Part shown: positions 4,801-61,625 of the stretch, in pieces
How positions within the stretch are numbered: the first letter of the stretch is position 1
Layout of the letters: every line of letters begins with the position of its first letter
Source: Antedon mediterranea
Lineage: Eukaryota > Animalia > Echinodermata
Reading direction: 5' to 3'
DNA length: 64,000 nt
Assembly: GCF_964355755.1 (NCBI RefSeq)
Contig: NC_092672.1
Location: forward strand, 30,510,437 to 30,574,436
Notes under the pieces: model-generated
Database searches by the model: none
Told to the model about the DNA's origin: nothing
Seen by the model: the letters and a program-made list of their open reading frames with translations, nothing else
Translations under genes and position numbers: made by a program

Positions 4801-6731
4801 ATGTCATGGACTAAGCAGTTCTTGTTGTTTTCAGATTTGGGTGCGTCGTTTCTCTCTTCAATGTTTGTGGTGTTAATGGTAAAGCGCGAAGACGGCTTCG
4901 ATCTCACTCCCGACACTTCGTATTCTACACTTTTCTTTTCCCTCACTAAAAATTTAAGAAGCGCAGGAAATCTGTCAGTTCTATCAATTACTGCTTTTTC
5001 ATCATATAATGACCGTGACCATTCTCTTCGAATAGCAGGTGGCAATCTCCTCTCAATGTCACTAACCACTCTGGTGTTGGACATTTCCTTCTCCATTCCT
5101 AATTTCCGTAGGTCATTATGACCTCTCTCGATGATGTCGACAAACTCAACAAATCTTTTGTCGTCTCCGTCTTTGAGTGAGTCGATACTTTCAAAGTCAT
5201 GCATAACGGCATCTGCTAATTTTATTGGGTCGCCATACCGCTCATCCAATCGCTTCCATATTTCGTTGATATCATCATCTACGGCGCCTACAACTTGTAG
5301 AGGTTTTTCTCCAAGAGATTTCCGCAAAACGAATGCTGCTTGATCCCTTGTGGTCTCAGGCAAAATGAATTTTAGAAAGTCTGTTTTGAATCTAGGGTAG
5401 GCCCTTACATCTCCGTCAAAGGTTGGCAATCGCATTTTTTCCAATTGTATACCGCCTTTTCTCTTTTCATCTACTGTCTTCTGAGTTTTGCTTTTGTCGA
5501 GGTGCTCCAAAAATATAGCAACAGCACTACTGGTCTCGCCGTACTTATCACGTACTGACTGGAGCCACAGATTTTCATTTATTGCCTCTTCATTGGGAAG
5601 CATGGAAACGTATTGCATATGTGCAGTTTTTACGTCTTCCATCAATTTTACAAGGTCAGCCCTTGCAGCTTTAACACCCTCAACAGAATTCTTGTTAATC
5701 AATTGGATTATCTGATCGCAAAGTTGTTGAAAATCATCATGTTGTATGCTACGAACGTTTTTCGCTCTCATTGCTGATATTTGGACTTCTTCCTCCTGCA
5801 GATGCCTTCTGTCAATTGCCTCAGAATCTATGTGCTGTTCATTAATGCGTGTTTTGTGTCTAAGTATCATTTCTCTTACTTCATCATATGTCTTCCCTAG
5901 TTGGCCAATCCAATTCTCATTCTCCTCTTCGTCCTTTGCAGACTGTAAAACTACTGATTCATGTCGATCGTTTACTGATTTCCAGGCTTCCTTCAAGTCA
6001 GCATTCAGCATATGTACATATTCTATTGTTTTATTCTGGTCAATTGCGGCGACGATAGAATTACAAATTCTTGTAAAACGTCCCTTGGCAATACGTCTCA
6101 ATTTCTTATAATCGGGGTCAGCCATGTTTTATAGAATAAAATTAAAGTCGGTGATTCAAGTGAATACAGTTCTGTGTATACAGTAATACAAGGATGTAGC
6201 TCCTGGCGCAGTCAAATATTGGTATCACACCGAAAGAACGGTAACTTGAGTGCGTGATGAGCAGGTTCATAAACAGGTCAGCAGAGTGCTGTCACTTCTC
6301 ACTGTGCACGTAGAACACAGTATTTCGAATGTAAAGAAGACCCGTGTCACACGTTAACGTTTCCAAACAACTTTAATTCAACAATGATCAGATGTTCGAA
6401 ATCTGCAACAACAATAACAAATTACATAAACACATGCATAAAGCTAGGCCTAGACCACTGTATAAAGCTCCCAAAAGCAAACTAGACAAAAAACTCATTA
6501 GAGCTACAGTATATAATAATATCAAAGTACAATACAGTGAATGCACTACTCAAAGAACTTACACTATTACGTCTACATTAAGGTTATATTTCACGGGAAT
6601 TCTCATAAGATGTGCGTATCAATCACCAATTCAAAGATTCACATGGTCAACATGACCTCTGACCCACTCTTATTATCTAGAACTAGAGAGGGCGCTAAAC
6701 CATTAAACAAGATATAAAGTCAAACTTTACA
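1874..6731 (-). mobile_element. BEL/Pao LTR retrotransposon, internally deleted
   Basis: 402-bp LTRs (1874-2275 and 6330-6731, TGT...ACA, no difference found by eye), 5-bp TSD GTGAC (1869-1873 / 6732-6736), and a purine tract (minus strand GTGGGGCGGAA) next to the 3' LTR. Confidence 0.95.
2295..6125 (-). CDS. BEL/Pao Gag-protease-integrase polyprotein without RT/RNase H
   Basis: 1276-aa ORF with BEL gag (LPTFDG; knuckles CFGCLVRGHRIAEC and CGVSECSRLHHSSLH), protease-like VLFDGCATAS, and integrase HHCC, GVDLFGP, WQNGVTE and C-terminal GDVVLV. No RT or RNase H motifs are present. Confidence 0.9.
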   Translation of the reverse strand: MADPDYKKLRRIAKGRFTRICNSIVAAIDQNKTIEYVHMLNADLKEAWKSVNDRHESVVLQSAKDEEENENWIGQLGKTYDEVREMILRHKTRINEQHIDSEAIDRRHLQEEEVQISAMRAKNVRSIQHDDFQQLCDQIIQLINKNSVEGVKAARADLVKLMEDVKTAHMQYVSMLPNEEAINENLWLQSVRDKYGETSSAVAIFLEHLDKSKTQKTVDEKRKGGIQLEKMRLPTFDGDVRAYPRFKTDFLKFILPETTRDQAAFVLRKSLGEKPLQVVGAVDDDINEIWKRLDERYGDPIKLADAVMHDFESIDSLKDGDDKRFVEFVDIIERGHNDLRKLGMEKEMSNTRVVSDIERRLPPAIRREWSRSLYDEKAVIDRTDRFPALLKFLVREKKSVEYEVSGVRSKPSSRFTINTTNIEERNDAPKSENNKNCLVHDMGQHTTPECRAYIAMNLSDKTQLVRAKGACFGCLVRGHRIAECKNKRQCGVSECSRLHHSSLHDDTVGDNSQPKTTLNHHTGVATSKQTGACLLQLMSIKVGAGHMNVLFDGCATASLVTNKSARAAKLKGQPLKIAITKIGGLTEEIDSFHYIVPLIDKQGSVINISAYGIDQITSNIECIAVQHVVGLFSKVRFEEIKRPTGQVDLLVGYEYAGYHPIRMEAAEHLLLLENRFGKCLGGSHPTLKENTTTLVKTAALIHHVTTCSLDSFIKMAGMGVQCNPQCGSCRCGRCPVGAKEYTLKEERELALIEKNLKFCGSHWIAEYPWIKDPAELPNNRNAALFALKSLENRLKKDPEKAVAYNTKMKNMYKMKKIAGALNVLTANDINEAELLWIIECQKPIMDMLINNEKRFDDQYAKLSPRVQDDGVIVVGARAQRHINFSYNNQEVPLLTANHRFSKLYVTHAHNRSHCGVQSTVSLVRLRYWILNLQRLAKSIRHHCVPCRKREKDMSGQQMGQLPIERLKPSPPWSFIGVDLFGPFITRGEVNKRARGKAYGIIFTCFVTQAVYLDLATDYSTTGFLQAFRRFVSIRGYPTEIYNQLVSASKELKGVIDGWQESDLHDFGITKGTTWKFSAADSPWQNGVTEILNKGIKKGIHHAIGGQVLPFNELQTVLFEVANLVNERPIGRHPTDPEDGAYLCPNTILLGRATTRVPSGPWRATNNIRNRIEFVQSLIKSFWGKWNRDYFPSLIVRQKWHHEKRNMQIGDVVLVQDSNTARGKWRMGLGSSVYPDINGKVRTVQVELRNEDRNAKQTVTRAVQRLIVLVAVDGINE

Positions 6732-9700
6732 GTGACGTCTAGACGTATTATTATAGTGACGTCTAGACGTATTATTATAGTGAGGTCTAGACGTATTATT
6801 ATAGTGACGTCTAGACATATTATTATATTGACGCCGAGACGTACTGTTATAGTGACAACTAGACGTACTGTTAGTGACGTCTAGACGTGACTGTTATAGT
6901 GACGTCTAGACGTACTGTTATAGTGACGTCTAGACGTACTGTTATAGTGACGACTAGACGTACTGTTCAGTGACGTCGAGACGTACTGTTATAGTGACGT
7001 CTAGATGTACTGTTATAGTGACGTCTAGACGTACTGTTATAGTGACGTCTAGACGTAATTATTATAGTGACGTCTAGACGTAATTATTATAGTGACGTCT
7101 AGACGTAATTATTATATTGACGTCTAGACGTAATTATTATAGTGACGTCTAGACGTAATTATTATAGTGACGTCTAGACGTATTATTATAGTGACCTCTA
7201 GACGTAATTATTATTGTGACCTGTAGACGTAATTATTATAGTGACGTCTAGACGTATTATTATAGTGACGTCTAGACGTATTATTATAGTGACCTCTAGA
7301 CGTATTATTATAGTGACGTCTAGACGCATTATTATAGTGGCGTCTAGACGTACTGTTATAGTGACGTCTAGACGTATTATTATAGTGACGTCTATACGTA
7401 TTATTATATTGACGTCTATATGTATTATTATTGACGTCTATACATATTATTATATTGACGTCTATACGTATTATTGTGACGTCTAGAAGTATTATTATAG
7501 TGACGTCTAGACGTATTATTATAGTGACATCTATACGTATTATTTTAGTGACGTCTAGACGTATTATTATAGTGACGTCTAGACGTATTGTTATAGTGAC
7601 GTCTAGACGTACTGTTATAGTGACGTCTAGACGTACTGTTATGGTGACGTCTAGACGTACTGTTATAGTGACGTCTAGACGTACTGTTATAGTGACGTCT
7701 AGACGTAATGTAATAGTGACGTCTAGACGTACTGTTATAGTGACGTCTAGACGTACTGTTATAGTGACGTCTAGACGTACTGTTATAGTGACGTCTAGAC
7801 GTACTGTTATAGGTGACGTCTAGACGTACTGTTATAGTGACGTCTAGACGTACTGTTATAGTGACGTCTAGACGTACTGTTATAGTGACGTCTAGACGTA
7901 CTGTTATAGTGACGTCTAGACGTACTGTTATAGTGACGTATATACGTATTATTATATTGATGTCTATACGTATTATTATAGTGACGTCTAGAGGTATTAT
8001 TATAGTGACGTCTAGACGGATTATTATAGTGAAGTCTAGACGTATTATTATAGTGACGTCTATACGTATTATTTTAGTGACGTCTAGACGTATTATTATA
8101 GTGACGTCTAGACGTATTATTATAGTGACGTCTATACGTATTATTATAGTGACGTTTATACGTATTATTATAGTGACGTCTAGACGTATTATTATAGTGA
8201 CGTCTAGACGTATTATTATAGTGACGTCTAGACGTATTGTTATAGTGACGTCTAGACGTATTGTTATAGTAACGTCTAGATGTACTGCTATAGTGACGTA
8301 TAGACGTACTGTTATAGTGACACCTAGACGTACTGTTATAGTGACGTCTAGACGTAATGTAATAGTGACGTCTAGACGTACTGTTATAGTGACGTCTAGA
8401 CGTACTGTTATAGTGACGTCTAGACGTACTGTTATAGGTGACGTCTAGACGTACTGTTATAGTTACGTCTAGACGTACTGTTATAGTGACGTCTAGACAT
8501 ACTGTTATAGTGACGTCTAGACGTACTGTTATAGTGACGTCTAGACGTACTGTTATAGGTGACGTCTAGACGTACTGTTATAGTGACGTCTAGACGTACT
8601 GTTATAGTGACGTCTAGACGTACTGTTATAGTGACGTCTAGAGGTATTATTATAGTGACGTCTAGACGGATTAATATAGTGAAGTCTAGACGTATTATTA
8701 TAGTGACGTCTATACGTATTATTATAGTGACGTCTAGACGTATTATTATAGTGACGTCTAGACGTATTATTATAGTGACGTCTATACGTATTATTATAGT
8801 GACGTCTATACGTATTATTATAGTGACGTCTAGACAAATTATTATAGTGACGTCTAGACGTATTATTATAGTGACGTCTAGACGTATTGTTATAGTGACG
8901 TCTAGACGTATTGTTATAGTGACGTCTAGATGTACTCTTATAGTGACGTCTAGACGTACTGTTATAGTGACACCTAGACGTACTGTTATAGTGACGTCTA
9001 GACGTAATGTAATAGTGACGTCTAGACGTACTGTTATAGTGACGTCTAGACGTACTGTTATAGTGACGTCTAGACGTACTGTTATAGTGACGTCTAGACG
9101 TACTGTTATAGTGACGTCTAGACGTACTGTTATAGGTGACGTCTAGAGGTACTGTTATAGTGACGTCTAGACGTACTGTTATAGTGACATCTAGACATAC
9201 TGTTATAGTGACGTCTAGACGTACTGTTATAGTGACGTCTATACGTATTATTATATTGACGTCTAGACGTATTATTATAGTGACGTCTAGAGGTATTATT
9301 ATAGTGACGTCTAGACGGATTACTATAGTGACGTCTAGACGTATTATTATTGTGACGTCTAGACGTATTATTATAGTGACGTCTAGACGTATTATTATAG
9401 TGACGTCTAGACGTATTATTATAGTGACGTCTATACGTATTATTATAGTGACGTCTATACGTATTATTATAGTGACGTCTATACGTATTATTATAGTGAC
9501 GTCTAGACGTATTATTATAGTGACGTCTAGACGTATTATTATACTGACGTCTATACGTATTATTATAGTGACGTCTATACGTATTATTTTAGTGACGTCT
9601 AGACGTATTATTATAGTGACGTCTAGACGTATTATTATAGTGACGTCTAGACGTATTGTTATAGTGACGTCTAGACGTATTGTTATAGTGACGTCTAGAT

Positions 9701-12019
9701 GTACTGTTATAGTGACGTCTAGACGTACTGTTATAGTGACACCTAGACGTACTGTTATAGTGACGTCTAGACGTAATGTAATAGTGACGTCTAGACGTAC
9801 TGTTATAGTGACGTCTAGACGTACTGTTATAGTGACGTCTAGACGTACTGTTATAGGTGACGTCTAGACGTACTGTTATAGTGACGTCTAGACGTACTGT
9901 TATAGTGACGTCTAGACATACTGTTATAGTGACGTCTAGACGTACGGTTATAGTGACGTCTAGACGTACTGTTATAGGTGACGTCTAGACGTACTGTTAT
10001 AGTGACGTCTAGAAGTACTGTTATAGTGACGTCTAGACGTACTGTTATAGTGACGTCTATACGTATTATTATATTTACGTCTAGACGTATTATTATAGTG
10101 ACGTCTAGAGGTATTATTATAGTGACGTCTAGACGGATTATTATAGTGAAGTCTAGACGTATTATTATAGTGACGTCTATACGTATTATTATAGTGACGT
10201 CTAGACGTATTATTATAGTGACGTCTAGACGTATTATTATAGTGACGTCTATACGTATTATTATAGTGACGTCTATACGTATTATTATAGTGACGTCTAG
10301 ACGAATTATTATAGTGACGTCTAGACGTATTATTATAGTGACGTCTAGACGTATTGTTATAGTGACGTCTAGACGTATTGTTATAGTGACGTCTAGATGT
10401 ACTGTTATAGTGACGTCTAGACGTACTGTTATAGTGACACCTAGACGTACTGTTATAGTGACGTCTAGACGTAATGTAATAGTGACGTCTAGACGTACTG
10501 TTATAGTGACGTCTAGACGTACTGTTATAGTGACGTCTAGACGTACTGTTATAGTGACGTCTATACGTACTGTTATAGTGACGTCTAGACGTACTGTTAT
10601 AGTGACGTCTAGAGGTATTATTATAGTGACGTCTAGACGTATTATTATAGTGATGTCTAGACGTAATTATTATAGTGACGTCTAGACGTAATTATTATAG
10701 TGACGTCTAGACGTAATTATTATAGTGACGTCTAGACGTAATTATTATAGTGACGTCTAGATGTATTATTATAGTGACGTCTAGACGTATTATTATAGTG
10801 ACGTCTAGACGTATTATTATAGTGACATCTAGACGTAATATTATAGTGACGTCTAGACGTATTATTATAGTGACGTCTAGACGTATTATTATGATACTAC
10901 TACTACTATATAGGACTATATATAATATTATATTTTATTATTAGTATTAGCTGCTAAATTAAAAACTAAGGTTTTGTGTACAGTACTAGTAGGCCTTATG
11001 GGATATCTGTAGTTCAATAAGTAACATATTGACACCCGGAGATTGACTACGCCTTTGCTGTTTTAATTTATCTGTATTTATTTTTTTGATGTATAGGCAT
11101 AAGAAAATGAAATGTATTCTAAAATGTTTTATTTGTTAATATAAAAATTAAACATTTCATTCATCTATGTTTCAGGATAGGTTTATATTTTTAGGATGCA
11201 TGGATTCTTTTTTCTATTTTGGGGAATAAATTAAAATTCATAAGAACACCTGTCAGAATAATGAATCTTTTGAATTGAATTGGTGAATTCTCTAGCATTA
11301 ATGTGTCATTTACATTTTTACCTGCACAGGTGCTTCGGATGCACCAAACATCAAACAAAAGAAACAAGTGGATCAAAATGGAAGGTACGTTTACTAGGAT
11401 GTGCATCTTGATGCAAACAAATAAATTAGAATGAAATATAACTGAGCTGTTGGTGCAATATTGAATCCAATAGATTTTGTATAATTGTATCTCCACAGAA
11501 TTCAGTCTCTATGATTCGACCACGCAAGAGGGTAGACAGAAGACGGATGGATCATATAGAAATTTCTTTTTTATTATATGAATCTCTTGAGCAACGAAAT
11601 AGCTAAATTGCATCAACACACTCCACTGGGACATGAATACCACTGATTTCGCACCGTGATATTCTACAAAACACTTGATTTTCATGTTCCCACCTAAATA
11701 TCTCGGCTATTAAAAATCAGATTTTTTTGGTTAGTAGCTCAAAATAAACAGTAGACAATACTGAACATTATGATATATGTTTGAATTTGTAAATTTAAAA
11801 AAAGTATGTGTCATTTTACCTTTTAAAACTCACCATCCACAGTGCCCGCTGACAATTTTTTACCTATTTTCTAAGGGCCTGTTTCTGCTGCATAAAAATA
11901 ACCGGTTAAAATCAGTGTGAATAAATTAAAATCGGTGTGAATAAATGAACTCCATTTTCTTGGCAGCAGAAACAGGACAAATTTGTGGTAACCTGTTAAA
12001 AGACAGCGCAAAATCGCTT

Positions 12020-13449: not shown

Positions 13450-14202
13450 CAACGTTGAGTGTCTTCAATAACGTCAGTGAACGTTACTTCAAGGTTAAAC
13501 CCAACGTTAACAATAACGTTTAACGGACGTCAAAAAAGGGTTCACGTTATTTGAATGTTATTTCTAAACATTCAAAATACGTAATGGTAATATTCAGCCA
13601 ACATTTTGGTGAACGTTGGACTCAACGTTCTGTGAACGTTGTTCGAGGGTTAAAACTACGTTAGTCATAACGTTCAGCTGACGTCAAAAAGGGTCCACAA
13701 CTTAATGTTATTTGAACGTTATTTCAAAACATTCAAAAAACATAAACGGTAACATTCAACTAACGTTCGCTGAACGTTGACTGAACATTAAACTAACGTC
13801 AGTTTTGACGTTCTCCGGACGTCACAAAGGGTCCACATCTGAATGTTATTTGAACGTTATTTCAAAACATTAAAAAAACATAAACTGTAACATTCAACTA
13901 ACGTTCGATGAACGTTGTGTAAAAGTTAAACTAACGTTAGTTATAACTTTCTCCATCACAAAGGGTCCACATCTGAATGTTATTTGAACGTTATTTCAAA
14001 ACATTAAAAAAACATAAACTGTAACATTCAACTAACGTTCGCTGAACGTTGTTTAAAAGTTAAACTAACGTCAGTTATAACGTTCTCCGGACGTCACAAA
14101 GGGTCCACATCTGAATGTTATTTGAACGTTATTTCAAAACATTCAAAAAACGTAACCGTAACATTTAGCTAACGTCATTTCAACGTTAAATTGTTAGCTG
14201 GG
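13450..14202. repeat. About 120-bp AACGTT-rich tandem repeat, probably internal to a MITE ending GTTAGCTGGG
   Basis: GGGTCCACATCTGAATGTTATTTGAACGTTATTTCAAAAC or close variants recur at about 13690, 13830, 13960 and 14100. Confidence 0.7.
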
Positions 14203-30200: not shown

Positions 30201-31190
30201 CATCATATACTCTTTACTCTCTCATGACTTCGGAAACTCGCGATCAACTACGTACAGCCATTGTTACTCTTTGCGCTGAGGCCACTTGGAGATGATAATC
30301 TCAATCTATTCGTGTTGACAACGCACCAGGTTTCCTTGGATTGGATCAAGATTCCACCTTGGTATTAATATTGAATTTGGTAGGGTTAAAAACATTATTA
30401 TTATTATTATTATTATTATTGTAACACAATTTATAAAGCGTCAATTCAAAGACCGAGGTACAAAATCAATGGCGCTATGCATGTTAGTGGTCGAAAAAAT
30501 GAGCAATTGTTTAAAAAAGGCAACAGAAGACCAGTGTTTAATTAACAAGAATACAGTCGCAGAAAACGCAATCAAAGAACTCGGTCTTGTCGAATGTCCT
30601 AATGTTAATTCTGAAGGAGACTCTTTAACACCCGTTACTCTCGCGACCGCAACTGCTAATTTGAATTCCAGAATTAGACAGGGTGGCCTATCTACACAAG
30701 AAATCTAGACTCGGCGGGACCAAATTACTGGACAACAATTACCTATCGAAGATCGACAGCTCATCCAAGAAAGACTTTTTTCTCCGTTCAAAATCATGCT
30801 TCTAGCTCCAAGTCCAATGCCCATGGTTCATATCCACCCCTACTTCTACAAATGGGTCTATCAATCTTGGTGATTTGGCATTCTTGTGTGGAGACCGAGA
30901 CAAAACCAAACCTCGTGATAAGTATATGGTGGTAGAAATCTGGGACGACCACTGTCAACTTCGTAAATTTACTAATTAGTCACAGTTCCGTTCCAAGTTA
31001 TACGATGTCCGATTCTCAGATTGCTATTGTGTACAACCAACATCATTGTTGCATTCACCAAAAGATCCGACACGTTGACAACACCACTCCACCGGTTGCT
31101 ATAAATACACTGCCTGTCTACTGAAACTTCCACTTTTAATGGCAATCCTCAACGTCGTTCTACTAGAAACAAACAGCCGCCTAGATGACA
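27290..31190 (+). mobile_element. Degenerate Gypsy/Ty3-type LTR retrotransposon internal region
   Basis: Fragmented gag (QIANFCSVISRNSIIKQST), RT ([14 protein letters not shown]...KIADDL), RNase H (LWIVTDGSV) and integrase (FAADVMRR..RETVSSY, RVDNAPGF). It is interrupted at about 28210-28843 and by a minus-strand LINE tail at about 30398-30540. Confidence 0.8.
28210..28843 (-). mobile_element. Helentron/HINE-like non-autonomous element inserted in the Gypsy RT
   Basis: Sub-terminal IR TACTCGGGGTAC / GTACCCCGAGTA, terminal palindrome ACTCGGGTACCCCGAGT and small hairpin GCACGAATGTGC. The Gypsy frame resumes (NLRLSARKT) after it. Confidence 0.55.
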
Positions 31191-32832
31191 AAACACTGGA
31201 GAATGGGTATTAAACCCTTAGACTTTGCATTGTTTTTTTCCATTGGACTTTTATTTTTGTTTTTACTTCACAGCTGTTTCAACCAATGTAAAATAAATAG
31301 AAAAAGTCAAGCGCCCTCAATATTGTCAGACGGCGATATGTGCCTGAGCGTGACGCCGCGCGAGTGGTTGAATCTCGTTCAACTTTCGCGACATTTGCAA
31401 CTTTTATAACTACACTTTAAATTAATTTAATCAATTTCGTCATAAATATTATAAAACCATTTTTATACTATTTGTTAGAAAATAAGATTCTTAATTACCG
31501 ATTTTTTGGAAATAGTAAGTAATTAAGCATAACAACAAGTTTACGAAATTATTTACACCCGGAAGTTTTAAAAATTAACATCGATCGGCCTAGCAAATGT
31601 AAACAATGGAAAGTTTGAAAAAATGCTTGTCAAATTGTACACTTTTTGTTTTTATTCGTAATTTTCATAAATACTTGGAAAATCTAGGTAAAAGTTTGAT
31701 TATATATGCTTACATGAGACATTGAATTGTTAGGAGGTGACGGTGAAAATCTCAAGAAATTTTCATTTAAAAACTCGACTGTTTTGTTAAATGCGAAACA
31801 GCGTATTTGGCGAGAGGTCGATGAACGCGGCTGATAACCGCTCGCTAGGCTGTACGCAACTAGGCCTAGGTTGTAGCTAGGCCTAGTTGGTACGTATAAG
31901 TAGTGTAATCATACTATACATCATTTTAATTTACAATAGAATAAATAATAAGCTTAATTATTATCATTGTATTTATTTCAACTGAATATAATTCATCATA
32001 AATGTAAAAATTTAGTAAAACTACTAACTACCAGGCCTAGCTAGGCCCTTAAAATTAAAGCCTATACAAAAATACTCAAACTACTGTATGATTATTATAA
32101 CATTAAAGGTTGGTAAAATTAAAATTTCTTTTCTTTTTTGTAGGCAACACAGTTTCACGAAAAGGCTTTACGTTCTACTTGCTTCTGTTGTGGAACAAAA
32201 TTTTAAGAAAAGGATAAAAAATACAACTTAAAAAATATGAAAACCATCACAAATTTGCACTAAATCTAACAAATGTAAAATTACAACCTATATACATTTA
32301 TACAACCTGCCATTCGCGAATTTTCAATGGATACTGTATACTACCACGCTAACATTTAAATTAACAGGGCATGGACCAAATTGCTTGGCATGCTACACTT
32401 CAACAACAACTATGACCTGGGCCAAAACTACATTCACAAGTGAAAGAACACACTGGCGTTTAAGGGAACAGTTTTTTGTCTGGTACAGCTGCTCCATAAT
32501 CTGCTTTTCTTCTTTATATCTTCACTCTTTTTGAAAGTTTATACTAACAAATTTAATTAAATGAACATACCTCATAATCAAATAACTGTTTTCTCATCCT
32601 AATTTATATACATAGTTTAAAAAGCGCCAATTTTCAATTAAGATTACATCATACATTGTATATTTCTATTCAACAAAATTGTCAGAACTTTCTTTTATTT
32701 AAATGTCTAAGATAGTCAGATCTCGGGTCCATTCTACAGTCACCACAGATTGACTTTTTCATCACAAAATTTCTGAAATTATAAAATGTATTAATGTGTA
32801 AATTAAGTATTTTTTAATTCCATAAAAATATC

Positions 32833-33101
32833 ATACAAGTATTTTTAGCAGAATACAGGCATATTGCACCAGGTGTAATACAGCCTAAGCTACATATGCT
32901 TGAGCACCATGCTATTGCATTCATGAGAGAATGGAAGGGGGTCTCTGAGCAAGGCGGGGAGCTAATACATGCCAAACTCAACCGTCACAAAACAGCAGTG
33001 TGGATTAGAGTCAAACTTAGACTCATCTGATTTTCACATCTCCAATGATACAAAATGAAATAATAAAACCCAACAAATGCAAGAAAGCCAACAAAGAATG
33101 A
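32833..33101 (+). pseudogene. DDE transposase C-terminal fragment (Chapaev/Transib/RAG1-type)
   Basis: IQVFLAEYRHIAPGVIQPKLHMLEHHAIAFMREWKGVSEQGGELIHAKLN has the HxxxxH zinc ligands and the EQGxE catalytic-Glu motif, analogous to RAG1 HKTLAH...SEGNES. Confidence 0.75.
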
Positions 33102-33291
33102 TTCATTAACATTAATGATCATAAAATATTGTACATTTTTAAATGTTAAAGGAATATTGCATTGTATTGATTTCCTTTTAACAATGCCTAATGATAATGA
33201 ATATGTAAAAGTAATACTATAGTATGTCTATATTTCAATTACTAACTAATTACTATTGATTGATAGTACTACTGCTGTACTGTACATGTGT

Positions 33292-35920
33292 TAGTGATTG
33301 ATTGTTAAAGTTACAAATTCATAGCATGGTAAACACAATTTAAAATTTACTAGTTCTTGAACAGTAAAATAAACTTACCTATATAGATGGTAGGTATAGG
33401 TATTGGTCCAAATCTGTTTAAAATGTTTTAGCCATTTTGGGTTGCCGCTATATATGTACCTAAAAAATAGTAATAGTAATAGTATAACATTATAATAAGA
33501 ATTAATTAAAATTAACTTATTAAATTTACTATGGTTGCATACATACTAATTTGAATATGCAGTGATGAGCAAAAACAAATGTTAAAATTCATTATTTATA
33601 ATAATTGTAATTATTACATACAGGGTAGGCATATATGCCTTATGTCATTGCATAGGGTATATATAACCAGGTATCCTCATAATAAACATTATTTGTAATA
33701 AATACTGTAAATATATTAAAAATAAAAATTAATAATAATTAAATAATAATATATAGGCATAGAGCCTCTAGGCCTAATTAGGTAGCCTACTAATACCTAG
33801 CCTATTGCTCTAGGCTAGGCTAAATAAGCTGGAAAGCTGCTTCTCTGTAGGCTGCTAGTGCAAGAGAGCACAGGTCTAGCTAGTATATTAAAATAAAAAT
33901 AGGGCCTATAATATAGGCCTAGCCTACCCAGCCAGTGGTAGTGATTGGTTGTTAATATTGAAAATTAATAGCATGGTAAACACAATTTAAAATTTACTAG
34001 TTCTTGAACAGTAAAATAAACTTACCTATAATATAGATGGTAGGTATAGGTATAGGTATTGGTCAAAATCTGTTTAAAATGATTTTTCCACTTCGGGTTG
34101 CCGCTATGTACCTAAAAAATAGTAAAACATTACTATAAGAATTAATTAAAATTAGCTTATTAAATTTAATATGGTTGCATACATACTAATTTGAATATGC
34201 AGTGATAAGCAAAAACGAATGTTTAAATTCATTATTTATAATACTGTAATTGTAATTATTACATACAGGGTAGGCATATATGCCTTATGTCATTGCATAG
34301 GGTATATATAACCAGGTATTCTCATAATAAACATTATTTAAATAAAATACTGTAAATATATTAAAACTAAAAATAATAATAATTAAATAATAATATATAG
34401 GCGTAGAGCCTAGACCTAATTAGGTAGTCTACTTATACCTAGCCTATTGCTCTAGGCTAGGCTAAATAAGCTGGAAAGCTGCTTCTCTGTAGGCTGCTAG
34501 TGTTAGAGAGCACAGGTCTAGCTAGTATATTAAAATAAAAATAGGGCCTATAATATAGGCCTAGCCTACCCAGCCAGTGGTAGTGATTGATTGTTAATAT
34601 TGAAAATTAATAGCATGGTAAACACAATTTAAAATGTACTAGTTCTTGAGCAATAAAATAAACTTACCTACTGTATATAGATGGTAGGCTGCTAGGTATT
34701 GGTCCAAATCTGTTTAAAATGTTTTTGCCACTTCGGGTTGCCGCTATGTACCTAAAAAATAGTAAAACATTATTATAAGAATTACTTAAAATTAGCTTAT
34801 TAAATTTAATATGGTTGCATACATACTAATTTGAATATGCAGTGATGAGCAAAAACGAATGTTAAAATTCATTATTTATAATAATTGTAATTATTACATA
34901 CAGGGTAGGCATATATGCCTTATGTCATTGCATAGGGTATATATAACCAGGTATTCTCATAAGAAACATTATTTAAATAAATACTGTAAATATATTATTA
35001 ATTAATTAAAATTAATAATAATTAAATAATAATAGGCCTAGGCCTATATAGGCGTAGAGCCTAGCCTAATTAGGTAGCCTACTTATACCTAGCCTAATTG
35101 CTCTAGGCTAGGCTAAATAAGCTGGAAAGCTGCTTCTCTGTAGGCTGCTGCTAGTGATAGAGAGCACAGGTCTAGCTAGTATATTAAAATAAAAATAGGG
35201 CCTATGATATAGGCCTAGCCTACCCAGCCAGTGGTAGTGATTGATTGTTAATATTACAAATTAATAGCATGGTACACAATTTAATATTTGCTACTTCTTG
35301 AACAGCAAAATAATCTTACCTATATAGATGGTAGGTATGGTCCAAATCTGCTTAGCCACTTCAGGTTACTGCTCTATATATGTATCTACAATAGTATAAC
35401 ATTAATAATTATTATAACAATTTTATAAAATTAACTTAACTTATTAAATTTAATATGATTGCATACTAATTTGAATATGCAGTGATGAGCAAAACCGAAT
35501 GTTAATATGATGCTTGTCATTATTTATATTGTAATTATTACATACATATAGGCCTATAATATTCCCTATTGCATACATGTTACATAGGGTATATATATAA
35601 TCCTCATAATATTAAATTTACAGTTTTTGTAATGAATACTGTAAATTTAATAAAACTAAAATTAATTATAATGATTAAATAATATTAAAAATATATAGGC
35701 CTAGGCGTAGATCCTGGGCCTAATTTTAATTAGGTAGCCTACTAATACCTATAAAGGCTAGTAGGCTAGCCTACTCAAGGTCAAGGCCAGGCTAACTAAG
35801 CCGGAAAGCTGCTTCTCTGTAGTAGGCTGCTAGAGAACACAGGTCTAGCAAGGGCCTAGGCCTAGTATTAAAATAAAAATAGGGCCTATAATATTGGTAT
35901 ATGCCTACCCTACCCAGCCA
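33292..35920. repeat. Four tandem copies of an approximately 650-bp unit inside the Chapaev-type element
   Basis: Units start TAGTGATTG at about 33292, 33939, 34581 and 35235. Confidence 0.9.
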
Positions 35921-36919
35921 GGCATAAATAATTAAAATAATGTAACATTTCCAAACTCATTTGGGTCAGCTGTCACATGAAAGGCAGTGTTGCAACTAGA
36001 GTAGACATAAGCCTAAGCCTAAAAATGACACAATTTGAAACGGCCATAGCTCAAAAATTCAACCATCACCTCTCGACCATTACTATGTTATAACATTCAC
36101 AGATAACTAAATTATCATGCAGTACCAAAGAATTAGAGTGAAAATTACATTTTTTAAAGATACGGACAAACAAACATGTACCTAATTTGGAAATGTCACT
36201 CACGTGCGTCAATTGGTCTATGCTTGTAATTTATGGTCCACCCTCCCATTAATTTTCAGCGTTACATTCCTTCTTCTTAAAAACAAAACGACAACGTGCT
36301 TGTTTCATCCCAGGGACTCTTTAATGAATATTCATATTTTTAGCGACCCTTTATTTTTTTATCTCATTCTCATTGGCTGTTTAAAACATGTCTTTAAATG
36401 ACGTTTGACTCCACTCTGCACACGTGGATTTGTAAGTAATTGTTTATGTATTGTTACTCCAGCGATACGACTTGTAACGTCGAGGGCGCATGACTTAATT
36501 CGTATGTTTGAAACAGCTGTGACTTTATTCTGTTTTTGAAAGAAATGTGGAAGGAAGAGGCGTTGCGCCATCACACGTTATCGTGTATTATTGTTGTTAC
36601 TGTGCGCCACCTAGTGGCATTGTTTTCGCTGTTAGTTGGTTCGTGTTCATATTATAGTGTCGGTTGATTTAAGTTAATATAAAAAAGTGTTTATATCTAT
36701 ACATAAAGTTGATGAGTCTTTATTGCCATTCCCTTAAATCGACGATAGTATGCACTTGATCATCATCGATCTTAGTCTTACTTTATCTTCTTTTATTTAT
36801 CAGAAGCCATGAAATCGCTATTATACAAATGGACAAGGATATACGTACCGCCGTTGAACGTATAACGTGTTTTTTTCTTATACGTACCGAAGTTGGCCGC
36901 CGCTGGACATACAAGGTTT

Positions 36920-37095
36920 AAAACTCGTCCTAAATAGTAAAACTCGCTCTAAATAATGAAACTCGTCCTAAATATTAAAACTCGTCCTAAATATTAAAAC
37001 ACGTCCTAAATATTAAAATACCTCCTAAATATTAAAACTCGTCCTAAATAGTAAAACTCGTCCTAAATAATTTTAAAAAAAAGCTAGTCCTAAAT
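36920..37095. repeat. 19-bp minisatellite (AAAACTCGTCCTAAATATT)
   Basis: About 8 visible copies. Confidence 0.85.
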
Positions 37096-53737: not shown

Positions 53738-55029
53738 TTTTTTCCACCCGCCCTCTCCCTACCAAAAAAAAAAAACTTGACAGCAAACTTATCCAGTTGA
53801 CTAGTTTCAGCCGCATGCCATTGGCGACTCACTCGTACGTCGTTTTAATATTCATATTTCAGAATTTCAAAGACTCAACATCTAAGACGATGCGCATGCG
53901 CTATGTTACGTTTAGACAATGTGTACTTGGGTACATTGATGAAAGTTTCTGAGGGCTAAACATGATTTTATATGCCTAGTAGTCTGGTAAACATTTGATG
54001 AGATTTTTCCCAAGAACATGAAAACTCGTCTTGATATGATAGGCTAGCTTCTCCGCCAAATTAAACATTGAATGGATCATTTATTATGCAGATAAAATTT
54101 TATTTAATTCCCACCCAGACCCTGTCCTGTTCTGTGTGGTGGTGTAGCCCAGTTATATGTGTGCCGGTCGGTGGTGGTATGTACCTAAATATTGGCGTTT
54201 TATTTGGAAGGTAATACGTACGAGTTGAGTAGCCCTAAGGAGGCCTAGGCCAGGACTAAACAATTAATAAACAAAACAACTTGGCAACACGATTTTATAT
54301 TTCAACAGTTGTTCAGTCTCGATCTTTTTCATTTTGAAATGATCATTGGTTGATTCGAAATCCATATTTACATACCGCCCGCCCCATATAGCCAAATACG
54401 GTATGATAACCTACGTCATTCTTATCGGATGTTTGCGGTTTGCAAATCGATTTCTATACGTGTTTCACAAGTCTGTATTTTCAGACAAAAATCGCAGTCG
54501 AAATAAAAACAAATAAATAAAAAAAAAGACAATAAATACAGACTTGGGGCAAGTCTAAGTAAAAGCCCCCTTGTACAAATTCCTTTTAATGATTGGTACT
54601 CAATAAAAATTGTTGATATAGTAGTTTTGTCATACGTATTAAAATAATAATTAACGAATAAGATATGCCTAGATTAACCTTACTTTGGAGTCAATTTACA
54701 TTTGCAGGAGCAAATTTAATTTGATAATCAGATTTAAAATATAGAAAATTCCAAAAGTTAACTTATCCAAGATAAACTAATTATACCATCTTTCTTCTTT
54801 TACTTTTGCAGTTTTCAGTGAATATTTTAACTATCAAGAATCTTTATTTGCCTATTATTTTATTAATATAATAATTTCTAATTCAGTACGTAATACTACT
54901 AATTTCAACTGCAACCTATAAATTCTCCTAACGCATCTCACATAACACTCAATCGCCTTACCGCAATAAAACAGTTTACATTATTAAAACAGTATACAGT
55001 CAATGCCATGGATAATAAAAAGTACGACA

Positions 55030-55880
55030 CAACCTATAACGCCTGAACGGTTTTTCATGTTTTGTGATTTTGTAATCTGTGCAAGGGCGAGACCCAAGGG
55101 TGTTGCCCTAGTGACCCGGGCAACACACTATTTAATACTAAATGTTGTTTCTGCCACTAAATTAAAATTGAGTCCCATTTCATCGTATGCAATATCCGTA
55201 TTTATACGTTATAGAAGTCCATTTTGGAAGAGAATATTTGTACATTGGCAGAATGCACAGCTGTTACCAATATTTTTGTATTACATATATTTACACCCAA
55301 GTTCTTACATTTAATCATTTTTATACAGTTCGTTAATGAATATTGAAAACAATAAGGGTGATAGTACATCCTTGCTTTACACCTTCGTCAATACCAAAAT
55401 AATCTGTAACAGTGTCTCCAAATGCTACTTTACATTGTACATTCAGATAAAGATTCTTAATTATATTAAGTAAACTTCCTTTGATACCTATATTGTTGAT
55501 AGCCTGAATAAGGCCATCTCTCCAAACAGTGACAAATGCTTTTTTGAAGTCTATGAAAGCAAAGTAAGTTTTTTTACCTTCAGCTTTTCTGGTTGTGATT
55601 ATGCTTTTAAGGGTAAAGACATGGTCTTTCACAACGCCTATTCTTACGAAAACCTCCTTGTACTTCATCTAATAAATCATATTCCTCAATAAAACTTGAC
55701 ACTGTTTGGGCGATTATCCTATTGTAGACTTTCGATACACAAGAGTTTAATGTTATGCCTCTATAGTTGTTTAGATTTTTTACATCCCCTTTTTTAAACA
55801 ATGGTATTATTGTACCTTTATTCCACTCATTAGGTATACATTGCAATTCTTTCAATCTATTAAACATTTTAAACAAGGAC
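55030..55880 (-). pseudogene. LINE reverse transcriptase fragment
   Basis: WNKGTIIPLFKKGD..NYRGITL, QGGFRKNR, FIDFKKAF and GVKQGC, frameshifted. Confidence 0.85.
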
Positions 55881-55952
55881 TCAGTTTACATATTATTGTA
55901 AATATGTAAATGTTAAAGAATGGAGGTAATCAGTCAACAGTTTTTTTCTGTA

Positions 55953-58389
55953 TTATTAGTTATCCGCTTGGTATACCAAGCGGATAACTCCTTGTTATTG
56001 TATGAGATCAACAGTTTTTTTCTGTATTATTAGTTATCCGCTTGGTATACCAAGCGGATAACTCCTTGTTATTGTATGAGATCAACAGTTTTTTTTCTGT
56101 ATTATTCTTCTTTCCATCCTTCCTTTTTGGGGATCGTGTTTCTCTAAAATGGGTAAACATAACATTTCATAACTTTGACATATGGGCATTTACGTGAAGT
56201 TGTGCACCTCCTATTTTTGAATGACGTCATAGTTGCGCAACGTGACTTACGCGCAATTTTATGAATTTCAATGATTGATCATAGATTAAAAACCAAAAGT
56301 CATTTAGTATTGACACTTTGACAAAATTTAAGTCATATCAGGGGTAAACTTTCTACGGATTAAAAATGGCATGTTTCACAAGAAGTTACGCGCGCACGCG
56401 CATTTAAAATTTCAAAATTAATTTCTAATCAACTTTTTATGCGTTTCTTGTCATTTTGAGCATGTCAATAATTCCCACGGGCGCGCATTTTTTTACGCAC
56501 GCGGTGCGCACGTAGCATATTTTTTTCTCTTGAATTATATTTTTCAAGCCTTTCCTAGTAATTTTGAAAACAATTTAGACCTTTTCCAATTTAAATAACG
56601 CCATACGAACACGTTGAATTAAACATTTCATGCGCGTTTTTTATGAACAAGGCCAACAGCCATTAAGTCGCGTGCTACAATGCATAGTGATACCGGACCG
56701 ACAGACAGACAGACAGACAGAGAGACCGACCGACCGACATAGTGAACTATACTGACCGAAATTACTGAACATGTTTAAAAATGTTGAAATGTTTAAAAAC
56801 ATTGATTTTTTTAAATTTACACGTGCGTAGCCCGTCACTTTCGACGTGCTCGTATAACGTAATTTCGAGTTGAAAAGTAAATCAAGAAAACAGAAATCGG
56901 GCAAAAAGAGTGTGCAATAACATTTAACGCGCAGTGCGCGCGCAAAAATATACGCACTCATGGCAATTTTGTAAACGCTTAAAATTGCCTGAAATGTACT
57001 TTTTATTCATCGAAAATAAATTTTGAGAATGTTAAGCGCGCGTACGCATGCGTTACATGCGCTACGCACGTAATTGTTTTGCCATATGATGATTTATGCC
57101 CAGAAATTTATGAGTACCAAATTTTATTTAATTGTGATTCATGGTTGTGAAGATATGATTACAAACGTGATTTCGTTAAATCGTGCGTAGACCGCGTACC
57201 TTTTTATTGCGCACCGTGAAAACATAACCACATTGATTCCTGGCCATAAGGAATATACTGTGAAAAATTGACCTAGCTAGATTAAACTGATATAAAGATA
57301 AGGTCAGAAAGCGATAAAACGCATAGTGATACCGGACCGACAGACAGACAGACAGACCGACAGACAGACAGACAGACCGACCGACCGACATAGTGAACTA
57401 TAGAGTCGCTTCCACGCGACTAAAAAGCTTAAAAAATCGTCAAAATTTTGTCTTTTTTTAAACAGTCATAGTTTCTAAAGTAAACCGTAAACCGTTTATT
57501 TTTATTACAAAATCTAGAAGTTGATGAGTTGTAGATAACGGATCATGCATCGATAAAGCTAAAAAAACATTGCGACGTCATCGTATGGCCACACGAATGT
57601 AAAATATAGGATTTTTGTCTCTTTCGTTATTGCTCATCACATTCAATGGAGCGCATCACGCTTATCTGTATTCCTTTTTCTCCTACATTTATATATTGTG
57701 TAGGTCAATCAACTTTCTTTAGCATGAGATAAAAATATTTTAATTTTTATGACGTCATCATGCTTAAAAATTTCAATTACGTGGGTCATTAATTTCATCT
57801 TTACAGTAAATTTTATTCTGTAATAGCTCGTAAGAATAAAATGTGATAATCACGATTAAAACGTTTTCTGGAAGCTATTGGATTTTAGATACGAATTCAT
57901 GTAAACATTTTGCCAATCGGATGTTGTGACGTCATCATATGGCCAGTTGAATAAAAAAAGTTCTATTTTCATATTTTGCGTAATAGTTCATCACATTTAA
58001 AAGGGTGCGCATCTATATTTTACGTATTCAAATTTCTTCTACACGTTAATGTGTTGTTCCTAAGATAATTTCCTTCTGAAATTGCTATCTAAGTGTTTCA
58101 TTTTGATACCGTTGCCATGTTAAAAATTGGAATAAATGGCGGGTCCCGTAATTTCACCTATTCTACACTGTATGTAATATGTATACAGATTATACTGTAG
58201 TGTTTGCATGTATATACTATATGACACAAAATTGACAGAATTCAGCACTAACAGCATATCATATTCTTCAGTTCTTGTCATAATGCCATAATCTTTATCT
58301 GTGTGCAATATTCCAACGTATGACGTGCACGTGGCGTTTGTCGTGGTGCGGATAACTAACTCGTCAAAGTGACGAGTTTCATGTCTAGT
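55953..58389 (+). mobile_element. Helentron/HINE-like element with a duplicated 5' end and a nested (GACA)n-bearing element at about 56646-57426
   Basis: 5' palindrome AGTTATCCGCTTGGTATACCAAGCGGATAACT (twice); 3' GCGGATAACT plus hairpin AACTCGTC...GACGAGTT and CTAG. The nested element has the AGTCGCGTG / CACGCGACT IR and ends AGTCGCTTCCACGCGACTAAAAA. Confidence 0.6.
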
Positions 58390-58669
58390 TACTCTTGGGA
58401 TATACGAAAATACCATTGAGCCATTTTCCCACCAGACAGTAGGCCTAACCCAACCATTTTACTATAACACATTAAAGCGCGTGAAGGGACAACAAATTCC
58501 ACTTTATACAAAACGAAAACACTGCAACAGCAACTTCAATCTCTAAGTTGGCCCAGGCAGTAGCTCATATTTTATCATGTGAATGGCTAACATGGCTAAT
58601 TCTTTTTTATTTTAACTGTACACATTCGGATACACTCATGACAGCTACTACTTTATCCTGTTAGCTTCT

Positions 58670-60574
58670 GAGTGTTGACAAAGTGCGAGGCAGCGAGGCA
58701 CGCGAGGCATGCCAAATATTTGTGCGAGGCATCATTTTATCATTTCCAAAAGTGCGAGGCATGCGAGGGGTGTCACGAAAGCTCAGACCACGAAAGCGAA
58801 GACCCCCTAAGACCTAAGATCACGAAAGCTAAGACCCAAGACCTAAGATTACAAATATTTATCTTTCGCACCTGCCTTGTATTTTAACTCCCAACATTTA
58901 TTCTGAATACCACACCTTAGAATTGGCACTTTCATGAAAAAGAATCACATAAAAAGTAACAAATACATTTTTAAATTGATGATTTTACAGACGTTTTTCT
59001 CGCACACAAAATGACTAGCCTACAGTACAGTAGGCCTACCCCATGGGCCATGTTCAATGTTTTTGTTTCTATGGAACGTCAAAAGAGCAAAAATTATATA
59101 GAGGGCTGAAAACTCTGTGGAGTCCATCTAGAGTGTGGATGGAACAATGTAAAATTAAAATTGTAATGATAATAGTATAATCATGCAAGTACGAAGAAAT
59201 AAATACTGGCAAATAAATTTTAATTTAAAAATCATGATAAATTTTTTTGTTTCGTTTTCTTTCTGTTTTTATACTTGTACTATTATTGTTGCTCTTTTGG
59301 CGCTCCATAGAAACAAAAACATTGAGCATGGGGGGAGCTCGAGGAGTTACATTGTCATTACAGTAATCAGTATACAGTACAAAGAAACACATCTGTAAAA
59401 TCATCAATTTAAAGGATTTATTTATTTGTTATTATGTGTTTCTCCTTCTGAAAGTACTTATAAGTCCTAATTTTAAAGTGTGGTGTTCAGGATAAAGTTA
59501 GTCAACAAATTTGGAGTCAAAATACAAGAAAGGCAGGTGCGTAAGAAAAACATCCTCTAAACCAACACAATGGAGTAAATATATACCAACAAACAACCCG
59601 TCAAGTTTGTTGTAAAGAAAAAATATACATTTACTCAACGGGCGAAAATAATGTGAGTTTATCTATGTTTTGCGGTAGTATTAAATTATATTTATGGTAA
59701 TAAATGAAACCTACTGTGTTTAAAATTATGTATGGATAAACAAGTATTGTTTTTAAGCTGTAGTATATCTTAGTATTTGTAATCTTAGGTGTTGGGTCTT
59801 TGCTTTCGTGATCTTAGGTCTTAGGGGGTCTGAGCTTTCGTGGTCTGAGCTTTCGTGACACCCTTTTATTTCAATATATTTGTTAATTTGTCAATAAAAA
59901 TGCTGTAATATGTTACTGCTGATACTGTTCTATTTTCAAAGAATAATAATCGATCCTAAATCAACATCACTACCTAGTCTAGACATAGGACATCCTACTA
60001 AGGATATTATGATGAATTTTTCTATTTTATTCTTTAAAAGGTTACCGAAACCGTGTACATTATCAACAGTACACCGGTGAACAGTAACATTTTTCCTTAC
60101 TGACAGTGACAAAATCTATTGAAATTGTACTTGATTTTCACCAAATAATGCGTTAAATATAAATGGATTCCACAGAGTTTTTAGCCCTCTAATTAATTTT
60201 GCTCTTTTGGCGTTCCATAGAAACCAAAATATTGAACATTGAGTGTGCGAAATGCGAGAAAAACAACGTCTGTAAAATCACCAATTTAATGGATTTATTG
60301 TTACTTTTATGTGATTTTTCTTCATTAAAGTAGGCCTACTAATTCTGCTGTGGTATTCAGGATAAAGTTGGTTAAAATACAAGGCAGGTGCAAAAGGAAA
60401 CTGGCCTAGCGGGCCTAGGCCTAGGCTACTTCAATTTCGGTGATTTCCTGCCTTGCAATTTTGAGAAATGATAAAATGATGCCTCGCATTTTTTGATGAT
60501 GGTAAAACGATGCCTCGCATAAATTTCTGACTTGCCTCGCATGCCTTCCCTGCCTCGCACTTTGTTACTACCCC
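58670..60574. mobile_element. Nested MITEs
   Basis: Outer IR ACAAAGTGCGAGGCA / TGCCTCGCACTTTGT. Inner element at about 58768-59863 with IR GGGTGTCACGAAAGCTCAGACCACGAAAGC. Confidence 0.7.
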
Positions 60575-61625
60575 TATACCCAGACCGGTTACAATAATGG
60601 TCTATTCATTCTGTTTATACTGTAGCTTTATTGATAGCTGGGTTGGGGCGGCTTTTTCTCATTCTAAAACAGATTTCCTTATCATAATAAAATAATATAT
60701 GAATTTAAATGTAGTATTGTATACATAATATTAGTAATTGCCATTGCATTATTATATATTATACGGTTACCCCTTAATTATACTATAGTATAATTTTCTT
60801 GTTATATTTTACAATATTTTCTTCATAGTTCAACAATTTTTTCTTTCACAGGAGAAATTATCATACTGAATCATCACACACCAAGTCTCATAAATCTCTA
60901 CTGTATTTCTCCAAGGTACTCCAGCTACATGGTATTGCCTTGAGGCTAAACTACAGTAAACGATATACTGGCACTACCATCATTCCTGGCCCGTCAACCT
61001 GGGCCACATTACAGTATGGTCCAACACATAAGTACAGTAAATCGTTTTATGCCTATTGTTGCATAAAGTATCAAATTTAGACTGTAAATACTGGGATGAT
61101 CACCCTAAATTTTCTTTTTCAATTAACAATTTTATATTTCACAGCTGAAAAATGCACTAAAGCATCATATAGAGATTTTTTATTCATAACTGTTAAATTG
61201 CATCCCAATACATGGTACCTATATAAAAATACAAAGGCGGCCAACACAGATAGTTTGATATATACAGTACTCTCTTATAAATAGATGTATCTCTCCAAAC
61301 TACTCCAACTACCTAATTAGCATACTACTGTACACTTTGTAGACAAGAAATAAATTGTATCCACCTAGAGGACTTATGGTAGTACAGTCGATCGTCCTGT
61401 CACTGGCCCGGTCAACATAATCTACGCCTAGATTATTACAGTAATTAAAGTACATTATTACAGAGATTTTTTTTTTTTTTTGCAGAAATCAAAGTTATGT
61501 GTATAGAAAGCAGTACTCGTATTAAAAACTAAGCAGGTTATATTCTTGTACGCAAACTGGCAGGATATTTTGAATATTTTTTGTTGTTGAAATGATGGAA
61601 TCCTAACTTCATTTTCCACGAGCTG

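Follow-up and report, generated by a model that had tools for sequence, protein, structure and literature searches.

A Chapaev-type transposon of Antedon mediterranea with ends that differ by one helical turn, an offset that recurs in distant Chapaev families

We describe here an unequal-ended DNA transposon found in a 64,000-nucleotide stretch of the Antedon mediterranea genome (contig NC_092672.1, positions 30,510,437 to 30,574,436; this whole stretch is called the window, and coordinates below are window positions). The element, at 31269-36521 (5253 bp), is a non-autonomous DNA transposon of the Chapaev type. It has 14-bp terminal inverted repeats (TIRs), each followed by an inner box that both ends share, and the two ends are unequal by 10 bp. 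Our results show that two end types, one helical turn apart, are fixed across the copies of this family, and that the same offset is present in two other Chapaev families. The parts of the two ends are as follows.

31265..31268, + strand: left copy of the target site duplication (TSD), ACTT, 4 bp; from the sequence and from the single ACTT at the joints of empty-site contigs
31269..31282, + strand: left (5') TIR, 14 bp, CAC-tipped, CACAGCTGTTTCAA; from the sequence and the jump in contig depth at the boundary
31283..31303, + strand: long spacer, 21 nt; from the sequence and gap-free contigs
31304..31324, + strand: left inner box, with a 15-bp core at 31304-31318, AAGTCAAGCGCCCTC; from sequence comparison
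36476..36496, - strand: right inner box, with a 15-bp core at 36496-36482, AAGTCATGCGCCCTC; from sequence comparison
36497..36507, - strand: short spacer, 11 nt; from the sequence, with no indel among the matches listed in sequencing runs X8, X9, X1 and X4 (see below)
36508..36521, - strand: right (3') TIR, 14 bp, identical to the left 14-mer; from the sequence and contig boundaries
36522..36525, + strand: right copy of the TSD, ACTT; from the sequence and contigs

An earlier note on this DNA had given these end coordinates, the 21- and 11-nt spacers and the ACTT duplication, and on re-reading the sequence all of them proved exact. The inner boxes of the two ends are identical at 14 of 15 positions, with an AGT at element positions 37-39 on the left and at positions 27-29 counted from the right tip. 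At the offset of +10, none of 5000 shuffles produced as good an inner-box match, and the element's combined end score of 26.5 compares with a maximum of 22 among 20000 matched-null draws from unrelated real DNA; shuffles and matched null together rule out a chance inverted match as the source of the boxes. The spacers, described before as largely unrelated in sequence, are indeed so, the best ungapped match of the 11-nt to the 21-nt spacer being 5 of 11. The window copy carries a private substitution at 36481, and in the remaining contigs the common inner box is 2 bases longer. Judged by their sequence, the inner boxes are likely to be a second, putative transposase-binding site. No second copy of the element ends was found elsewhere within the 64-kb window. 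A CTCF site was also considered as the identity of the inner box and rejected, since the CTCF motif agrees only at GCGCCCTC; a putative CTCF-like motif lies in the right flank, at ~36603-36619.

The hallmarks of Chapaev elements are CAC...GTG termini and 3-4-bp TSDs, of 4 bp outside Chapaev3 (PMC4079192). The element has CAC...GTG termini, with tips confirmed by the differing flanks of other copies, and ACTT on both sides, and the TSD is 4 bp because empty paralogous sites carry one ACTT. A 5-bp TSD is expected for Transib in the strict sense and for RAGL/ProtoRAG, and a CACAATG-like heptamer with an A-rich nonamer for Transib, whereas the tip here reads CACAGCT and the inner box AAGTCAWGCGCCCTC. 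TSD length and termini thus rule out membership of the Transib or RAGL groups. The interior of the element contains two features:

32821..33098, + strand: transposase relic, the C-terminal ~90 codons; 74% identity to P0001
33288..35921, no strand: internal tandem array, unit ~640-680 bp, ~4 copies, ~80% alike

The relic matches P0001, a 201-aa protein of Anneissia japonica, with an E value of 6.5e-16; it retains the H(4)H motif and the catalytic E (EQGGE), the rest of the gene being absent, and it is damaged by the loss of 4 codons and by a frameshift near 33003-33024. The EQGxE transposase relic announced by the earlier note is therefore present (32821-33003) and, together with the termini and the 4-bp TSD, it bears out the assignment to Chapaev. 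A tblastn search with 154 relatives revealed no transposase sequence in the element beyond the relic; neither the relic nor P0001 had a match in Pfam, and positions 31000-37000 had none in Rfam. About half of the element is the tandem array of ~645-bp units (~2.6 kb), which the note had passed over and in which TAGGCCTA-like palindromes are abundant. The reading frame at 32279-32560 (+) is broken; it includes the protein-like WTKLLGMLHFNNN and is possibly a piece captured from another element. With its stops read as X, it had no Pfam or homolog match.

Are the two spacer lengths a property of the family or of this copy? Copies were studied through contigs of sequencing runs rather than through a whole-genome assembly, and 11 runs contain part of the stretch. 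Runs X8-X11 show further copies in the same genome, but their agreement is not independent support because they are one sample, probably the source genome. Left-end contigs were sought in X8, X1, X2 and X4 and right-end contigs in X8, X9, X1 and X4, the pieces listed being 13 of 32 and 20 of 50, with 5 and 3 further loose ends beyond those listed; the X1 contigs stop short of the left tip and X2 (organism B) gave none at the left end, which does not imply absence. Contigs drop rare variants and display each end singly, so left/right pairing in a given copy stays unlinked.

At the left boundary a contig depth of 68-122 gives way to one of about 1000, other contigs continue into flanks of unrelated sequence, and a contig of depth 963 covers the left end (31275-31463), across the 21-nt spacer, with 0 differences and 0 gaps. 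A second, diverged left insertion (31270-31326) has 4 differences and 0 gaps, and the sole indel among the left-end matches listed is at 31408. On the right (36462-36521), depth is 1257 in X8 and 1303 in X9 against 32-40 in the locus-specific flank, and no indel falls within the last 200 bp among the matches listed in the four runs. The right-end contig of organism A (X1) has 10 substitutions and 5 gap entries over ~370 bp, leaves the terminal 40 bp unchanged and ends exactly at 36521; X4 is similar. At 36521/36522, contigs of X9, X1 and X4 part from the window sequence into flanks of their own, and several contigs fuse left-flank-like sequence directly to 36522 with a single ACTT, being empty sites in a host repeat. 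This repeat (~31200-31268 and 36522-36612) is itself multi-copy and carries the element as an insertion, and empty copies of it were seen. The family is young, multi-copy and recently amplified, and depth, which is only a rough guide, suggests a copy number in the tens. The spacer lengths are thus fixed across copies, as gap-free, high-depth contigs span both spacers and the diverged left copy keeps its spacing. A private indel as the source of the asymmetry is ruled out by these contigs, by the right end in organism A and by the same offset in the distant families L012 and L024, described below. X8 and X4 also have contigs that agree over only ~35 bp (31298-31332) about the left inner box before diverging, which suggests related families that share this box.

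The end geometry was further explored in other Chapaev families. A metagenome scan, with 35 of 64 parts covered, gave at least 28 transposase loci, 26 of which were scanned for ends (L002 and L017 come without flanks). Among the at least 28 loci listed, five include the gene's 5' end; none of these five showed a long symmetric TIR, and clear end pairs were obtained only for L012 and L024. Both have an inner box offset of exactly +10 with the 5' end long: L012 combines an 8-bp TIR with spacers of ~15/5 nt, and L024 a 12-bp TIR with spacers of 14/4 nt. Neither end score was reached in 5000 shuffles; that of L012 was matched in 3 of 20000 matched-null draws, and +10 accounts for 26 of the 1311 offsets in the matched null. 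As for other loci, the L024 family includes a truncated copy, L018, and L013 gave no end pair. Resemblance to known ends guided the choice of the tentative pair of L001 (47..5552, imperfect TIR, no TSD, with TTAG lying 10 bp deeper on the left) and of the right end of L022, and neither is used as evidence. L024 (35-6200) is a full-length Chapaev-type element whose 5-bp duplication, AGTTG, has the length of a Transib/RAG TSD, a single case near a contig end. The family's end patterns had 0 matches in metagenome contigs and 0 in viral contigs, and transposase scans of viral contigs and prokaryote genomes gave no confirmed relative.

For L019 with L021, and for L020 with L024, sequence likeness breaks off at the CAC tip, an independent confirmation of these right ends, and in L026, a sister of the L024 family (~70% alike, with a decayed tip), the 4-nt spacer length is kept with 2 of 4 bases changed. 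Each of 7 ends has a single AGT in its first 50 nt, which lies at 36-37 in 3/3 left ends and at 26-27 in 4/4 right ends, and left-versus-right matches between families peak at +10 (15 of 3000 shuffles equal this peak at any offset). Because of these AGT positions and of the cross-family peak, the conserved feature is the distance from core to tip. Over the C-terminal segment, the L012 and L024 transposases show 30-43% identity with the relic and 32% with each other, and the three lie in separate clades of a 41-row tree, which holds search hits only and in which the relic fills 28% of the columns. The earlier note had proposed an "11/21" pairing rule; its offset of 10 recurs in distant families, but the lengths 11 and 21 are specific to the focal family, the others having ~5/15 and 4/14. 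That selection maintains the 10-bp asymmetry is, in our judgement, highly probable.

The offset might have nothing to do with synapsis, the 5' end being longer through a promoter, a host-factor site or chance, and the boxes being remnants of longer TIRs. The long end is always 5', where the promoter lies, and TIR decay can leave short bipartite matches. We nevertheless consider this explanation very improbable: +10 is exact in three families with ~30-40% identical transposases, and the core keeps its position between flanks that are otherwise unrelated. A stronger case can be made for helical phasing with no pairing rule. Each end would then act independently as long as box and tip point to one side of the helix, an ancestral 10-bp difference being tolerated and other shifts purged, and symmetric pairs would be equally active. 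Such phasing agrees with the fact that most Transib families are symmetric, five being listed as asymmetric, and that RAG1 alone has no need of asymmetry, and also with the Merrow elements of Chapaev3, whose left ends seem, by eye, to switch between offsets of ~0 and ~10 among hosts. In Merrow, the right end has the motif TTTGTTC, which is short and T-rich, ending at 24 nt from the tip, and the left ends have it ending at 33 nt (dragonfly) or 34 nt (tuna); by eye, this is an offset of ~+9/+10, which fits a one-turn step (PMC4079192 supplement Fig. S6). Free switching, on the other hand, predicts some symmetric or reversed families, whereas +10 is found in 3/3 families with both ends and a short right end in 4/4 families, a small sample. 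We rate phasing without pairing as rather unlikely, though it is the chief competitor of the reading proposed below.

What kind of enzyme might read such ends? Chapaev transposases are DDE enzymes with C(2)C, LH and H(4)H motifs and an N-terminal Chapa zinc finger, accompanied or not by a RING. The P0001 family has 947 cluster representatives at E 0.001. Its full-length relatives carry DUF1280 (PF06918), a RAG1-like N-terminal zinc finger and a RING, the zinc finger (RAG1_imp_bd) and RING being matched in P0005, P0038, P0039 and L024, as well as two D motifs and a CxxC motif, of which none remains in the relic, where only H(4)H and E are kept. This architecture matches that described for Chapaev (PMC4411706). 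An AlphaFold2 model of the relative P0039 (mean predicted local distance difference test score, pLDDT, 88) matched RAG1 with a Foldseek E value of 2.8e-16, and BbRAGL and HzTransib as well. The modelled core aligned to RAG1 (VIA) with Z 27.5 and a root-mean-square deviation (rmsd) of 3.7 over 458 residues, and to HzTransib with Z 26.4 and rmsd 3.3 over 405; by sequence profile alone, no PDB chain was found at E 0.01. In these models, the catalytic core of the relatives is of the RAG1/Transib fold. When chains containing the nonamer-binding domain (NBD) were used, P0039 residues 350-412 fell on RAG1 390-458 (Z 27.5, rmsd 9.6 over 525). The corresponding segment of L012, folded alone (pLDDT 93), ranks the RAG1 NBD (3gnb) 2nd of 48161 chains, and in many relatives, L012 and L024 among them, the segment comes after a GGQP/GGRP-type motif. 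These comparisons point weakly to the segment at the RAG1 NBD position as a candidate NBD-like domain. Neither P0155 nor 4 spare open reading frames taken from L012 and L024 matched Pfam, and no RAG2-like gene was seen there or in the focal copy, whose interior is deleted.

We propose that the transposase forms an asymmetric complex that brings a long end together with a short one. The enzyme for the non-autonomous copies would come from an intact transposase encoded at another locus of the genome; its RAG1-like catalytic core would cut at the CAC tips, and the inner boxes of both ends would be bound by a dimer of the NBD-like segment, which, as in RAG1, lies after the RING region and before the core. 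With one extra helical turn the box would stay on the same face of the helix and the dimer would be free to tilt. Long/short pairs would be preferred because an NBD-like dimer could tilt across a one-turn difference, and selection on transposition would hold the offset at 10 bp. As there is no evident RAG2 partner, we expect such pairing to be favoured but not obligatory. In RAG1 itself, the NBD dimer swivels so as to accommodate a 12RSS together with a 23RSS (RSS, recombination signal sequence) (PMC10629977). On balance we lean towards such a complex, with an NBD-like dimer reading the boxes, and for the focal element we infer the pairing rule from this analysis.

Alternatively, the asymmetry could be of the piggyBac kind, in which the boxes would be bound by another domain, such as the N-terminal Chapa zinc finger, or by unequal protomers, and unequal ends would be needed or act as a brake, having arisen independently of the RAG nonamer system. 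PiggyBac, whose machinery is unrelated, requires asymmetric ends, which restrain it (10.1101/2022.09.26.509586), so unequal ends can arise in other ways; the relatives bear extra N-terminal zinc fingers, the inner box is unlike the RSS nonamer, and polarity differs from Transib. But the AGT cores lie at about the distance where the nonamers end in the 12RSS and 23RSS (7 + 12 or 23 + 9 = 28 or 39), and the NBD-like segment occupies the RAG1 position, so that we regard a piggyBac-like origin as improbable.

Several observations weigh against a long/short rule that is general in Chapaev and built on an NBD. Among the contigs, one of depth 2 from X4 appears, by eye, to lack the greater part of the left inner box. 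The main contigs agree in spacer sequence, no within-family drift at fixed length being seen. Only two further families have both ends; of these, L012 has no TSD and its unanchored inner match scores 13.5 against a shuffle maximum of 14, and L024 has a 5-bp rather than a 4-bp duplication. As for the enzyme, the L012 segment against 3gnb gives Z 4.0 and rmsd 4.8 over 59, which by itself is noise level, Foldseek with the NBD-like segment alone had no match, and the comparison was done on relatives because the autonomous partner of the focal family was not found. Upstream of the intact gene that begins at 62545 (see below), no CAC with an AGT at 36/37 occurs in 54000-62545. From the literature, RAG1 without RAG2 no longer requires asymmetric substrates and loses 12/23 (PMC4840297), and the polarity of asymmetric Transib elements is opposite, with 5' short and 3' long ends, the focal element being long at its 5' end (PMC1131882). 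Two lamprey Merrow consensuses have the left motif at 24 and 25 nt, by eye, an offset of 0/+1, in families of ~250 copies each (PMC4079192, Table 1 for the copy numbers), which suggests that symmetric ends can spread in the Chapaev3 subgroup.

Asymmetry in Chapaev bears on when and how the 12/23 rule arose, on which several views exist. One view ties the rule to RAG2 (PMC4840297); a second sees a Transib 'seed', some Transibs being called the only other known case of 12/23 asymmetry (PMC8355894); and a third starts from an asymmetric RAGL ancestor (PMC10629977). Chapaev is a distant branch that shares the N-terminal domains of RAG1 (PMC4411706). One-turn asymmetry has already been published for five Transib families (PMC1131882) and for PflRAGL-A (PMC10629977). 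Searches of full-text literature, covering neither the Repbase Reports that define Chapaev nor subscription papers, figures, bioRxiv supplements and five supplements of PMC4411706, found no published unequal or asymmetric Chapaev ends, and such ends are not described in the available portions of PMC4411706, 10.64898/2026.08.26.747230, 10.64898/2026.01.24.700457, PMC7204232, PMC3014272, PMC12730594 and PMC8355894. If the fixed one-turn offset across distant Chapaev families is true, the geometry would lie deeper in time or have converged, and single-protein enzymes with natural long/short substrates would allow a direct test of the role of the NBD without RAG2; if long/short pairing is true as well, the design would be older than the 12/23 rule of antibody genes. 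In a bolder version, Chapaev transposases would enforce the long/short rule through a pivoting NBD-like dimer without RAG2, asymmetry and reading domain would be ancestral to Chapaev, Transib and RAG1, and the 12/23 geometry would be inherited, with symmetric Transib and RAGL-B as derived states; this we hold as possible but doubtful.

At the right edge of the window, 62545-64000 (+) holds an apparently intact Chapaev gene that runs off the window end and encodes P0038 (951 aa; first exon 99.7% identical), with a RAG1-like zinc finger, RING and DUF1280 and ~38% identity to the relic over 56 residues. Candidates for the left tip of this element are 61140 and 61626, and P0038 is a good candidate enzyme for assays. 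Elsewhere, satellite-like arrays occupy 6727-10892 (24 bp x 173), 36918-37069 (19 bp x 8) and 13624-14175 (138 bp x 4), and a reading frame at ~2328-3431 (-) appears in weak tblastn alignments and resembles the integrase region of a long terminal repeat retrotransposon.

How does the element compare with known systems? With Chapaev (the CMC/CMCT clade; PMC4079192, PMC4411706, PMC12730594) it shares CAC...GTG termini, the 4-bp TSD and, in the relic, H(4)H and the catalytic E; the focal copy differs by near-total gene loss and by its tandem array, and those portions of the published descriptions that were available make no mention of bipartite ends whose offset is fixed at 10 bp. The asymmetric Transib families (Transib5, Transib2_AG and TransibN1-N3_AG; PMC1131882) likewise have a CAC tip, a second conserved block, ends about one helical turn apart and the core fold, but their TSD is 5 bp, with a CACAATG heptamer and an A-rich nonamer, whereas the focal element has a 4-bp TSD and a box that is not A-rich. 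PflRAGL-A has bipartite TIRs with a 10-bp asymmetry, as in the focal element (PMC10629977), and ProtoRAG has bipartite TIRs with a 27/31 asymmetry and a measured preference for the asymmetric pair (PMC8289069); both encode RAG1L and RAG2L and make 5-bp TSDs, whereas the focal element has a TSD of 4 bp and gave no sign of a RAG2-like gene. The RSSs of V(D)J recombination are the last comparison. The earlier note had called the asymmetry of the ends RSS-like; in sequence the ends are not: CACAGCT stands against CACAGTG, with 5/7 heptamer bases matching, and the inner box has no similarity to the A-rich nonamer. In geometry the likeness holds, with an offset of 10 rather than 11, as RSSs and focal ends both have a tip motif and an inner motif whose end lies ~28 or 38-39 bp away from the cut, a difference of one turn, and the modelled relatives of the transposase have a RAG1-like fold.

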